DNA from: Candidatus Latescibacterota bacterium
GTDB taxonomy: Bacteria > Latescibacterota > UBA2968 > UBA8231
Reading direction: 5' to 3'
Length of the DNA: 64,000 nucleotides
Assembly (NCBI GenBank): GCA_965203175.1
Contig: OZ241867.1
Coordinates: forward strand, 3,392,001 to 3,456,000
Shown: piece by piece, positions 7,716 to 11,985 of the stretch
How the letters are laid out: each line of letters opens with the position of its first letter
How positions within the stretch are numbered: the first letter of the stretch is position 1
Position numbers and translations under genes: made by a program
The notes under the pieces: model-generated
Told to the model about the DNA's origin: nothing
What the model saw: the letters and a program-made list of their open reading frames with translations, nothing else
Database searches by the model: none

Positions 7716-7931
7716 ATGCACCGATTTGATCCTGATCGCTATTATCGAACGAACGACCCCGAGCTCGCCGTGATTGCCACGCGTGGTACGCTGAGTCAAT
7801 GGCGCCATCGCGGCGAAGGGCCGCCGTATATCCGCTTCGGAAATCGCGTACTCTACGAGGGCCGTGCGTTGAACGAATGGCTTGATGCACACATAGTTCA
7901 TCCTACCAATCCCCGAGTAAGGATGGATTGA
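7716..7931 (+). CDS. AlpA/excisionase-like helix-turn-helix protein
   Basis: TLSQWRHRGEGPPYIRFGNRVLY...LNEWL; GGAGGTG RBS. Confidence 0.85.
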   Translation: MHRFDPDRYYRTNDPELAVIATRGTLSQWRHRGEGPPYIRFGNRVLYEGRALNEWLDAHIVHPTNPRVRMD

Positions 7932-7935
7932 CCCC

Positions 7936-9102
7936 ATGCTCGCCAAACCGACCTTTTCCGATTGGGAGGCCGTCGCCGACCATTGGAAACTGCGGCGAGT
8001 AGGCCGCGAGCTTTCCGGCCCTTGCCCCTTGTGCGGAGGCCGCGACCGTTTCCACGTCCGCGAGGAAAGCGCCGGCGCGGTCGTAGGTTGCCGCGGCTGT
8101 ATCGACGGCCAACCGCAAGGCCGTGCCCGCTTTGGCGAGCTGATGCACTTGGTGTTTGGCGACCGCTTTTTGCCGAAATCACCAAAATCGCGTCAGAGGC
8201 TCCAAAACGGCCCTGTAAGCCACCCAAGGGAACACACCAGCGAACCAGCTCGCGCAGTCGAGCAGACCAAAAGCCAACGCCGCGCCGCCGAATTTGGCCG
8301 CCGCTTGTGGAGCGAAGCTGAGCGGATCCCCACACCCTCGAGCACTGGCCCGTCCGACACGTCACCGCCGAGGTTATGGTTTGCAGCTCGTAGCTTGCTG
8401 CACCCTTGGCAGACCCCACCGCCAGCGATCCGCTACCATGCGAGCAAGCAATTGATTGTCACTGGACTGTGGTCCCTCGACGCGGTCCGCACCGCTTGGC
8501 CCGGGCTACCTACCGATCCGCCGCCGGCCGTCCACTGTATAGCGATCGATGAGGAGGGCCAGAAGCGATACCCGCCGCGCAGGACGGATGAAAGGGGTCA
8601 CCGGCACGACAAGCGCACCTATGGCCAGATTACCTACACCGGCGCAGTCTTGGCGCTGGGCGACCCCGAAGCCGTGGCCGATCCCGTTCACATCTGCGAA
8701 GGCGTAGCCGACGCCCTAGCCATCTATTCGCGCAGGCCCGGACTTGTGCTAGCTAGCATCACGACTGTTACGGCCGTAATCAAGCGCCCCGGAGTGTTGC
8801 GACGCATCTACGATAGTCGCCGCGCCTATATCTGGTCGGACATCGACGCCAACCGGCAAGGCCAAGACGCCGGTGCACAACTAGCCGAGGCCCTGAAAGC
8901 GGCAGGCATCACTACCGCGACCGCGACAGGCGACGAAGGCCAAGACCCCGCCCAATGGAGCGCTGAGCTAGGTTGGCCCGTACTAGCTCCCGATCAATTC
9001 GCAGAAATCGCCGGCAAGTCCCTTGACGACGGACAACCGCTTGCCGAGGCCGATCGGATAGCTATTCATACCCTAACAACAGCGCAAGGAAACCAACATT
9101 GA
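7936..9102 (+). CDS. DNA primase, P4-alpha-type zinc-binding domain plus TOPRIM
   Basis: ELSGPCPLCGGRDRF...CRGC zinc finger; ICEGVADALA and SDID..GQDAG TOPRIM motifs. Confidence 0.85.
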   Translation: MLAKPTFSDWEAVADHWKLRRVGRELSGPCPLCGGRDRFHVREESAGAVVGCRGCIDGQPQGRARFGELMHLVFGDRFLPKSPKSRQRLQNGPVSHPREHTSEPARAVEQTKSQRRAAEFGRRLWSEAERIPTPSSTGPSDTSPPRLWFAARSLLHPWQTPPPAIRYHASKQLIVTGLWSLDAVRTAWPGLPTDPPPAVHCIAIDEEGQKRYPPRRTDERGHRHDKRTYGQITYTGAVLALGDPEAVADPVHICEGVADALAIYSRRPGLVLASITTVTAVIKRPGVLRRIYDSRRAYIWSDIDANRQGQDAGAQLAEALKAAGITTATATGDEGQDPAQWSAELGWPVLAPDQFAEIAGKSLDDGQPLAEADRIAIHTLTTAQGNQH

Positions 9103-10256
9103 CCCATTACAACCCCCCAACCTCGGCCCACGAAGTCAAAGGCGACCCTCAAGCGCCGCTGCCGCTTGAAGTGATCCAGCAACAGGCCCTCGAAGCCCTC
9201 GACCGAGGCGACTACGAGGCGCTGGCCGAAGTGCTGACTAGCGCCCGTATCCGTTGCGAAGATGAGGCTGACACCCGACCTAGCTGCGAGGCCGTCCGCG
9301 CCGCCTTCGAGCAAGTGGACGGCGATAGCTTGCCCCAAGCCATCGCGAAGGCCGAAACCTTGATCCAGTGGGAACGGCGACCAAAAGCCCGCGCCGCGCA
9401 TAAAATCAACGATCCCCAACCCGCGCCCTTGCTAAAAGCGGCAGGACAAGACGGCCCGCTCTTGACTGCCGGCATGGTGGCGACCCTATCCGGCGCAGGT
9501 GGCACGGGCAAAAGCAAGTTAGCGCTACAAATCGCCTTACAGTTCGCCGAGGCCAACGAGTATGGCCTGACCCCCGACAAACTATGGGAGGCCGCTGCTG
9601 GTTCGGTCCTTGTTTGCACCTACGAAGATGCGGCCGGAATGACCGCCGATTATTTACGCCAGCAGGCCAAGTGCTTGAATTGCCCCGGAGGAGTAGCACA
9701 TGTCAAGGTCCTCGACTTGGCAGGGTATCCGCTTTTCGGTCCTGGCGAAGCGCAAAGCTATAACACCCGCCCATCTCGATTGTTCGGTTTCCACGTGCTA
9801 GCCGACGCCGCCGAGAAAATCGGCCCGCGCCTTATCGTGATCGACCCGGCGCTTTTCGCATATGTTGGCGAGGCCAACGCCACCTCGCCCGTCCGCGAGT
9901 TTGTCGCAGCGCTGGCCCAGCTAGCTAGCCAGCACAACGCCGCCGTGCTATTGGTTGCCCATTCGACTAAGGGCGCTCGCTTAAGCAACAGCAACAGCAA
10001 GCCCGATCTATTCGACGCCGGACAAATGAGTGGATCCGCCGGATGGCACGACGCGGCCCGTGCTTGCCTTGTGCTGACCCGCGAGACAGACGACCCGACC
10101 CGCTGGACGCTAGCCGTTGCAAAAGCCAACTACGGCCCGTCTTTCATAAAGACCTTGCTCAAGTACGAACACCCCGTTTTTCGTGCTGCTGATAGCCCCG
10201 CTTGGAAGGACAAAGACGGCCAACCCACTACCCAAGAAGACAACCCTTATGCCTAA
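9099..10256 (+). CDS. RepA-like replicative helicase (AAA_25, SF4)
   Basis: Walker A GAGGTGKS, YED, Walker B LIVIDP, LVAHSTK, GSAGWHDAAR, KANYG; start overlaps the primase stop. Confidence 0.85.
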   Translation: MTHYNPPTSAHEVKGDPQAPLPLEVIQQQALEALDRGDYEALAEVLTSARIRCEDEADTRPSCEAVRAAFEQVDGDSLPQAIAKAETLIQWERRPKARAAHKINDPQPAPLLKAAGQDGPLLTAGMVATLSGAGGTGKSKLALQIALQFAEANEYGLTPDKLWEAAAGSVLVCTYEDAAGMTADYLRQQAKCLNCPGGVAHVKVLDLAGYPLFGPGEAQSYNTRPSRLFGFHVLADAAEKIGPRLIVIDPALFAYVGEANATSPVREFVAALAQLASQHNAAVLLVAHSTKGARLSNSNSKPDLFDAGQMSGSAGWHDAARACLVLTRETDDPTRWTLAVAKANYGPSFIKTLLKYEHPVFRAADSPAWKDKDGQPTTQEDNPYA

Positions 10257-11769: not shown

Positions 11770-11814
11770 AGGCCGAAGCCTGTGCACGTGGCCTATTAAC
11801 GAATTAACTGGCAA

Positions 11815-11880
11815 AACACGCTAATAGGCCATATGGAACACGCTAATAGGCCATATGGAACACGCTAATAGGCCATATGA
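11815..11880 (+). repeat. Three tandem 22-bp iterons (putative oriV)
   Basis: AACACGCTAATAGGCCATATGG twice plus a third copy ending ATATGA; inverted partial copy TGGCCTATTAACG at 11789-11801. Confidence 0.85.
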
Positions 11881-11948
11881 AGGCCGAAATTAAAGAGAGA
11901 AACCGCCATCGCAACAGAGACAACAGGTACACAGGTTGTTGTTGTCCC

Positions 11949-11985
11949 AGCGGCAGACCGATCGCTGGGGCGACCGACTGCCGCT
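11949..11985. other. Hairpin downstream of iterons, possible primase (ssi-like) site
   Basis: AGCGGCAG...TCGC-TGGG-GCGA...CTGCCGCT. Confidence 0.4.

Follow-up and report, generated by a model that had tools for sequence, protein, structure and literature searches.

The window analysed here, a stretch of 64,000 nucleotides (nt) from a Candidatus Latescibacterota bacterium (contig OZ241867.1, positions 3,392,001 to 3,456,000 of the forward strand), contains a compact module in which an operon of four genes is followed by three tandem repeats of 22 bp (iterons), and which is probably the replication module of a mobile element. The operon encodes, in order, a small helix-turn-helix (HTH) protein, a DNA primase, a RepA-type helicase and a protein of 506 amino acids (aa), which is best read as the initiator acting on the iterons. 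The four reading frames are all open and translationally coupled, and the genes are intact; the first two genes are separated by 4 nt, the second and third overlap by 4 nt and the third and fourth by 8 nt (ATGCCTAA). Read from GTG 10183, the open frame of the fourth gene would encode 528 aa. A strong Shine-Dalgarno sequence (GGAGGTG) precedes the HTH gene, and the non-coding region upstream contains an imperfect palindrome (7523-7558); a sigma-70 consensus scan of this region (7431-7715) gave no promoter on the plus strand. A first-pass annotation, made from the letters alone, had described a tightly coupled operon of this composition, followed by an inverted half-iteron, three 22-bp tandem repeats and a GC hairpin. 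Genes, junctions and domains were all borne out, and the three downstream features are all present after the fourth gene (Table 1).

Table 1. Features of the module; positions are counted from the first letter of the window
Feature	Positions	Strand	Remarks
Conserved unit of about 5.3 kb: regulatory region, four-gene operon, origin and ORF196	7431-12742	+	cover by contigs of public runs
Upstream non-coding region, putative promoter/operator	7431-7715	+	sequence, palindrome
HTH gene	7716-7931	+	71 aa
Primase gene	7936-9102	+	388 aa
Helicase gene	9099-10256	+	385 aa, TTG start
Fourth gene (initiator candidate)	10249-11769	+	506 aa from ATG
Inverted partial iteron, 11/12 nt	11790-11801	-	14 nt ahead of the direct array
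Three tandem 22-bp iterons (AACACGCTAATAGGCCATATGG), presumed initiator binding sites	11815-11880	+	Tandem Repeats Finder (TRF); homologous loci with their own arrays at the same position
Spacer with short A-rich stretch (GAAATTAAAGAGAGAAA)	11881-11947	.	weak candidate unwinding region
GC-rich nested hairpin	~11948-11985	.	in both the minimum free energy and the centroid DNA folds
ORF196, 196-aa product	12102-12692	+	inside the conserved unit, covered by the copies in runs X3 and X5

The 388-aa product of the second gene is, by its sequence, a DNA primase with an N-terminal Cys4 zinc ribbon and a TOPRIM catalytic domain. It matched the Pfam models Zn_Ribbon_Prim (24.2 bits, for a cut-off of 23), Toprim_3 (31.2 bits) and Toprim_2, together with the DNA primase family phrog_510 of PHROGs (E 1.1e-16). 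The ribbon is formed by C30-x2-C33 and C52-x2-C55, the TOPRIM glutamate lies in the ICEG motif at residue 253 and the DxD motif in DIDAN at 302; no relative was found among PDB sequences. The 385-aa protein encoded next is, on similar grounds, a replicative helicase of the RepA type, with a RecA fold (AAA_25) and an N-terminal extension of about 115 aa. Its AAA_25 match reached 79.3 bits (E 3.8e-22), and a protein of the module also matched the primase/helicase family phrog_239 (E 1.2e-12). The best PDB sequence match of the helicase is RepA of plasmid RSF1010 (1g8y, E 4.5e-8, residues 120-352 against 25-250), its matches in PLSDB are IncQ genes for a 'helicase RepA family protein', and it possesses Walker A (GAGGTGKS at 132) and Walker B (LIVIDPA at 245) motifs. 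The 71-aa HTH protein is likely to be an AlpA/excisionase-like regulator of the MerR type (HTH_17), a recombination directionality factor, or both. It matched Pfam HTH_17 (E 6.2e-6) at 26.8 bits, just below the 27-bit cut-off, and phrog_66, 'excisionase and transcriptional regulator', at E 0.002. In L028, one of the related loci considered below, a bona fide AlpA (PF05930, E 1.4e-17) is encoded in the equivalent position; it aligns weakly with the window HTH protein.

The 506-aa protein is best read as an iteron-binding replication initiator whose sequence family had no name before. In an exhaustive search with HMMER, 1011 cluster representatives (clustering at 50% identity) were obtained at E <= 1e-3, and 586 at E <= 1e-10. 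The 25 close relatives recovered by a word-indexed search all lack a Pfam domain and a name, and a single member among the 51 listed for nine clusters is named, as a 'hypothetical protein' of a metagenome-assembled genome (MAG) of Gemmatimonadota. No relatives were found in 72,556 plasmid records (PLSDB), 50,697 phage records (INPHARED) or IMG/VR, and fused forms sought among proteins of 887-2530 aa were not found, which is weak evidence. By sequence, the protein belongs neither to Rep_3 (PF01051) and related models of Pfam nor to a family of NCBIfam. Language-model neighbours of the protein, which serve as leads only, include clusters that carry RepC, Rep3_N, TrfA and RctB.

Structure prediction points to the same function. 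Residues 1 to about 215 are variable or of low confidence, and those from about 215 to 506 are predicted to form tandem winged-helix (WH) domains, WH1-WH2. The full-length model has a predicted local distance difference test score (pLDDT) of 68, with values mostly below 50 over the N-terminal 215 or so residues, and a model of residues 225-506 built with 126 sequences has a pLDDT of 93.6 and a predicted template modelling score of 0.89. This second model was compared, independently of Foldseek, with 48,161 PDB representatives, and only Pi of plasmid R6K and RctB reached Z >= 8. Pi bound to iteron DNA (2nra_C) gave Z 10.8 (root-mean-square deviation 3.6, 202/252 aligned), a clear rather than an overwhelming match, since unmatched models typically have a best Z of 7-8 with this aligner. 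RctB domains 2-3 followed at Z 8.0, and below them came single winged-helix domains at Z 6.4 and lower. With the full-length model, rows 1-40 were all Pi, RepE54/Rep or RctB (Z 10.0-8.1), and the next value was 6.7; RepE54 was matched at about Z 9, and RctB at Z 8.0-8.8 over both models. Plasmid Rep proteins are described in a review as composed of WH domains (PMC4980987). The predicted fold is best read as that of a tandem winged-helix iteron initiator, an assignment that is good, if short of beyond doubt, and it strengthens the first-pass proposal that the fourth gene encodes a new initiator. The initiator fold itself is known, so that what is new is a sequence family and a combination of parts, with no new principle.

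The iteron array begins 46 nt past the stop codon of the fourth gene. Its copies (100, 100 and 95% identity) are identical save for one terminal base, and it is the only array of period 22 among the 24 TRF rows for the window. A 12-nt iteron core occurs four times in the window with at most one mismatch, three times in direct and once in inverted orientation; four matches were reached by none of 100 shuffles (mean 0.33), and an 18-mer of the unit, allowing two mismatches, has no further occurrence in the 6.58-Mb genome. The inverted partial copy is a candidate dimer or operator site. Script matches list inverted iteron-like words upstream of the array for L007, L008, L009, L026 and L028 as well, although those of L007 and L008 accompany matches inside the arrays and may reflect self-complementary units; extra direct or inverted words upstream of the main array are listed for several loci. 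Another short word, AAGGCCGAA, lies on both sides of the iteron block of the window (11770-11778 and 11880-11888); its two occurrences are spaced by 110 nt (5 x 22), which keeps them in register with the iterons, and may be weak flanking binding sites. The GC-rich hairpin is a possible helicase-loading or priming signal, or else a terminator-like structure; in IncQ replicons, the primase recognises the hairpins ssiA and ssiB for single-strand initiation. The 331-nt region as a whole has a folding z of -2.6, with 2 of 100 shuffles folding as well, and is mildly unusual only.

Arrays of this kind recur at the 3' end of other genes of the family. The loci compared comprise six from species-representative genomes, three metagenome contigs and eleven from the window's phylum; together with the window, they amount to 392,758 nt, which were scanned with TRF for arrays of period 20-24 and a score of at least 40. 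Sixteen of the 20 arrays obtained lie at -45 to +381 nt from the stop codon of a family member. Outside the window, an array of 21-22 bp of its own accompanies the gene at 14 of 22 places (a further place extends past the end of its locus); L002 and L005 hardly differ, so the 14 count as 13 independent places. All arrays but one (21 nt) have a period of 22 nt, the copy number ranges from 2.0 to 7.2, and the sequence of the unit differs from locus to locus. The first-pass annotation had proposed a check for homologues with co-varying downstream repeats, and these arrays, of the same period and different sequence, correspond to that description. In gene orientation, ACGC is common to 8 of the 14 units, a level that any 4-mer reached in 8 of 5000 composition-preserving shuffles. 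Pairwise iteron similarity is correlated with protein identity (Spearman 0.34, reached in 13 of 5000 permutations); such co-variation in sequence is the expected signature of a cognate pair, short of proving binding. In several loci (e.g. L003, L009, L010, L027 and L033), the AT-richest 40-mer starts within about 60 nt past the array end, as read from the printed positions without a scripted count.

The operon is also found elsewhere, both in full and in part. In L028, which comes from a different genus of the family, the genes encode AlpA, a Toprim primase, an AAA_25 helicase and a family member, and a 3 x 22 bp array follows; to judge from the sequence, this is the window operon in full, recurring in another genus. 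L027 has primase, helicase and family member, and L003 and L026 have a helicase followed by the family member. In L031, a gene on the minus strand (10020-11828) directly upstream of the initiator gene encodes a 602-aa protein with zinc ribbon, TOPRIM and AAA_25 domains, in which the primase and helicase encoded separately in the window are naturally fused. This locus also has a divergent ParA gene and a small tyrosine recombinase. ParA adjoins the family gene in L002/L005, in L010, where it is divergent, and in L031; L002/L005 have ParA and a ribbon-helix-helix gene upstream, and Cas genes downstream.

Some relatives lie on contigs that resemble plasmids. L008 (MKWU01009058.1, 1-8806) has an exact terminal overlap of 127 nt, which makes it a circle of 8679 bp; a family member (3234-5315), followed by 6.1 iterons of 22 bp, is its only recognisable replication gene. 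This candidate small plasmid also encodes several open reading frames (ORFs) without a family match and an RTX-repeat protein. A contig of 61.7 kb (G137:C3, L039-L042), from a three-contig genome of the window's genus, encodes ParA and a family member; its 21-bp array is preceded, at -47 and -14, by two DnaA boxes that match TTATCCACA perfectly. Pfam gave no further replication initiator on this contig; it carries CRISPR-Cas and restriction-modification genes, and has no terminal overlap. The layout of ParA, initiator, iterons and CRISPR-Cas (Cas_GSU0053, Cas_GSU0054, Cas3 and Cas4-Cas1) is shared by G137:C3 and L002/L005. One of these contigs belongs to the window's genus and the others to MAGs titled Chloroflexota/Dehalococcoidia, and the layout reflects either the same defence cargo across phyla or mis-binned small contigs. 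The initiator family was found in 11 genomes among 168 from the window's phylum, and in 4 among 401 sampled from the phylum of L007 (records titled Chloroflexota/Dehalococcoidia). The genomes from which L003 (G169) and L002 (G170) were taken have seven matches each, over several small contigs, a pattern that points to several plasmids residing together, or else to integration and decay that happened repeatedly. Contigs of 6.8 and 7.6 kb encode proteins that fall into the same 90% cluster as the window initiator (one protein at 92% identity).

The closest known arrangement is that of the IncQ plasmids, represented here by the IncQ1/MOBQ plasmid pYR11 (NZ_CP099810.1) standing in for RSF1010 (NC_001740). 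The annotated order in pYR11 is RepB primase, repressor F, RepA helicase and RepC, with repA and repC overlapping, and an array of 3.0 copies of 22 bp (4157-4222, TRF) begins at the repC stop. The window likewise has a primase, a RepA-type helicase and a predicted iteron-binding initiator in the same order, an overlap between the last two of these genes, a small regulator encoded with them and three iterons of 22-bp period beside the initiator stop; moreover, its helicase is a true sequence homologue of RSF1010 RepA. The IncQ analogy drawn at the outset is accurate in layout, and the accompanying remark that the primase is not of the IncQ type also holds: it is a Zn-ribbon/TOPRIM enzyme, of a different class from the RepB domain of pYR11, and no RepB family is among its matches. 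The initiator differs in being 506 aa long, with an N-terminal extension of about 215 aa. It had no match to the RepC model PF06504 at E <= 0.1, and hhalign of 126 family members against 18 RepC sequences gave a probability of 12% over the last 46 residues only, a stretch with a C-terminal motif similar to RepC that hints at very remote kinship with it; by these results, the initiator is distinct in sequence from RepC as well as from Rep_3. Unlike IncQ plasmids, the window element lacks a MOBQ relaxase and is chromosomally integrated, and the hosts of the new family are uncultured lineages rather than Pseudomonadota.

The initiator itself is closest to the winged-helix iteron initiators (R6K Pi, F RepE, pPS10 RepA and domains 2-3 of Vibrio RctB), with which it shares the predicted tandem WH1-WH2 fold, direct repeats next to the gene that span about two helical turns, a partial repeat in inverted orientation close by and, in one relative of the new family, DnaA boxes beside the iterons. 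It is about twice as long as these proteins and has no detectable sequence similarity to them (Pfam, NCBIfam, PDB profile). In half of the loci, the gene of the new family is accompanied by one for a helicase of its own, and in some of them by one for a primase too; classical Rep_3 plasmids, in contrast, depend on DnaB and DnaG recruited from the host. Islands of the GIsul2 type, which can be compared by description only, combine integration with a tyrosine integrase, alpA and plasmid-type repA/repC (PMC9376610). In the accessible text of that source, the repA/C genes are of the IncQ type by the authors' own naming, and the island adjoins its integrase, with defined att sites (PMC9376610). So described, GIsul2 resembles the present case in being an integrated island with tyrosine integrase, alpA and plasmid-type replication genes, and differs from it in that the integrase here is 12 kb away, no att site was found and the initiator is of another family.

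The module is probably plasmid-derived and now chromosomal, a replication module of a mobile element that follows an IncQ-like logic with an iteron initiator of a new family. This reading draws on the domain identities of the primase and helicase, the initiator-like fold, the linkage of family and arrays, the circular or ParA-bearing contigs and the recurrence of the operon. A mechanism can be proposed by analogy with IncQ plasmids and with Pi and RepE; on this basis, we suppose that the initiator binds DNA and recruits the helicase, that host factors are not required, that the HTH protein has the role given below and that the integrated copy may still fire. The C-terminal tandem winged-helix half of the initiator would bind the three 22-bp iterons, two helical turns apart, just downstream of its own gene, and this binding would open nearby DNA. 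The element's own RepA-type hexameric helicase would be loaded at the opened DNA, its own Zn-ribbon/TOPRIM primase would prime, and the host polymerase would elongate; host DnaA, DnaB, DnaC and DnaG would be dispensable. The AlpA-like HTH protein would regulate the operon and/or assist excision, and the inverted half-iteron would probably bind initiator dimers for copy control. A wider claim, which we advance tentatively and with more doubt than confidence, is that operon and iterons constitute a fully host-factor-independent replicon family able to function across phyla, a functional analogue of IncQ built from different parts and existing both as small plasmids and as integrated copies. Its range would be that of uncultured, largely marine or host-associated lineages, including the window's phylum and MAGs labelled Chloroflexota and Gemmatimonadota. 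As for the self-sufficient replicon family suggested by the first-pass annotation, the new initiator family and the new combination stand, but self-sufficiency and activity of the chromosomal copy are inferred.

The limits of the element can be estimated from two public runs of other studies (X3 and X5), in which contigs with copies of the module fall into likeness bins of 90-99%; run contigs show presence only. The X3 copies cover 7431-12742 only and enter unlike sequence past both ends, which suggests a unit of 5.3 kb that includes ORF196. The product of ORF196 has no significant match in Pfam, PHROGs or NCBIfam, and tblastn gave no match in the other loci. A circular junction of the unit was not found among the joints listed in run contigs, and no RNA run is among the runs listed as carrying sequence. 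Depth over the module in the best run was 23.6 against about 25 in the flanks, with X2 contigs at 11 to 83; depth of this kind cannot rank regions. A miniature inverted-repeat transposable element (MITE)-like element of 135 nt (7253-7387), with 19-nt terminal inverted repeats, abuts the left end of the unit, and related MITE-like pieces of about 150-200 nt, including those at about 14790-14945 and 17125-17280 in the window, recur many times in genomes of the genus.

The first-pass annotation had seen no integrase, capsid, terminase or relaxase. None was found within the module or, for capsid, portal, terminase (terS included), relaxase, sid/psu/delta-like and packaging genes, among the flanking ORFs (PHROGs, Pfam), but a gene for a tyrosine integrase of 387 aa (Arm-DNA-bind_3; phrog_1, E 7e-59) is located 12 kb upstream in the same orientation, just outside the window. 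It occupies 10534-11697 of L037 (G000:C1:3386534-3387697) and is followed by an IS4/5-type transposase. No tRNA gene was found within 16 kb upstream of the window, and a DNA search of 31 genomes of the genus for an empty site gave short dispersed repeats only, with no syntenic empty site. To the left of the module, a gene for a 1082-aa protein with leucine-rich repeats (LRRs) and dockerin (3952-7200) is missing in the related strain of X5, a contig of which joins 3873 to 7116 (3874-7115 absent). To the right, on the minus strand, the window encodes a Ser/Thr protein kinase (15414-16604) and an ABC-type ATPase with AAA_21 and DUF4435 domains, an OLD-like architecture (18261-19868); these genes, just right of the island, may be defence genes.

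The integrase and the AlpA-like protein raise the question of a phage satellite, resembling P4 or the phage-inducible chromosomal islands (PICIs), that would be excised by these two proteins and replicate on induction by a helper phage. The pri-rep-ori region of the Staphylococcus aureus pathogenicity islands (SaPIs) and the alpha/ori region of P4 are satellite replication modules, and they share with the window an AlpA-type regulator, a Zn-ribbon/TOPRIM primase whose domains (Zn-ribbon and Toprim_3) are named after phage primase-helicases, a repeat origin beside the replication gene (just 3' of it, as in SaPIs) and an integrase in the wider region; the true AlpA of L028 occupies the place of the window HTH gene. 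However, origin binding, helicase and primase functions are divided among three separate proteins in the window, and the helicase is of the RepA/RecA type rather than superfamily 3. Packaging and capsid-remodelling genes are lacking, the initiator has no relatives in the viral collections, and members of its family occur with ParA on plasmid-like contigs and on the 8.7-kb circle, which has no phage genes. Insertion sequence (IS) transposases and the LRR gene also separate the integrase from the module, and no att repeats were found, all of which makes a satellite improbable. Still less probable is a partition, incompatibility or repression system, in which the winged-helix protein and the 22-bp repeats would act in centromere binding or transcriptional regulation, and the primase-helicase pair or host factors would start replication elsewhere. 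Repeat-binding winged-helix proteins do act as partition and repressor proteins as well, ParA genes adjoin several relatives, single winged-helix domains of SMC-kleisin and ORC proteins appear in the structural comparison at Z 5-6.7, and no unwinding element is evident in the window copy. Yet the matches that span both domains are replication initiators only, the ParA of L002/L005 already has a ribbon-helix-helix partner gene of its own, and neither the 8.7-kb circle nor G137:C3 has another recognisable initiator. The array of L033 directly adjoins two perfect DnaA boxes, in several loci the AT-richest 40-mer lies just past the array according to the printed positions, and the order of the genes and the 3 x 22-bp layout are the same as for IncQ RepC and oriV.

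A stronger competitor, which we nevertheless consider rather unlikely, accepts the naming of the parts and holds the chromosomal copy to be an inactive remnant of an integrated plasmid. This copy is part of a chromosome assembled as a single contig of 6.58 Mb, it has no adjacent integrase or att site, and its flanks hold short dispersed repeats and IS elements. Decayed versions of the module, such as L007 and L004, are known, with in-frame stops in L007 and L030 and a truncated helicase in L004, which indicates that decay after integration happens in the family. In the window, by contrast, the four genes are intact and coupled and the iterons all but identical, and the 5.3-kb unit has been kept as a block in the runs of other studies; the 6.8- and 7.6-kb contigs with members of the same protein cluster are also of a length that a small free plasmid could have. 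Beyond its chromosomal position, several observations tell against reading the module as that of an element with an iteron initiator. The interval from integrase to module contains two transposase genes as well as an HNH and an LRR gene, and direct repeats shared by the integrase side and the right flank are at most 13 nt long, with none reaching 14 nt. By sequence, nothing links the 506-aa protein to characterised initiators: it matches nothing in Pfam, PHROGs or NCBIfam at E <= 0.1, and its 24-sequence profile matches no PDB sequence at E <= 10; the marginal hhalign result with RepC and the moderate lead of Pi over the usual structural scores belong here as well. The first-pass annotation had suggested a structural search of 10249-11769 for winged-helix Rep folds, and this was answered in part, by the matches to Pi and RctB, but Foldseek gave no match in the PDB at E <= 0.001 with either model. 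Eight of the 22 gene places lack an array (L004, two fragments in L006, L029, L032, L034, L035 and L036); that of L004 adjoins the truncated helicase, and L029, L032, L034, L035 and L036 are weak or partial matches of 45-84 bits. The co-variation of iterons and proteins is short of proof because kin share both features by descent. The assignment of a DNA unwinding element is weak for the window copy because the AT-richest 40-mer within 300 nt on either side of the array has an A+T content of only 65% and lies at the proximal edge of the array. Finally, no DnaA box with up to one mismatch was found within 300 nt of the array, an absence that fits independence from DnaA and proves nothing.

Iteron replicons and self-sufficient replicons of the IncQ type are already known, as are int-alpA-repA/C islands, to go by the accessible description of GIsul2 (PMC9376610). 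The new elements are an initiator family to which no characterised Rep protein is related in sequence, its consistent origin signature and its association with a TOPRIM primase and a RepA helicase. No description of the initiator family or of the operon was found in the full-text literature, which does not prove absence, most subscription journals being outside the coverage. If the host-independent reading is true, the unit at 7431-12742 would be a ready-made minimal replicon of broad host range for bacteria without genetic tools, and it is a compact candidate replicon for vector building. A large unannotated family (1011 representatives) can be named as probable plasmid replication initiators. 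Its origin signature, a 21-22-bp array at the 3' end of the gene, could be used to recognise plasmids, free or integrated, in metagenome bins from little-studied phyla that lack replicon typing. The IncQ strategy, in which an element has its own primase, helicase and initiator, would have arisen twice, the second time with another primase and another initiator, which bears on the evolution of broad-host-range replication.

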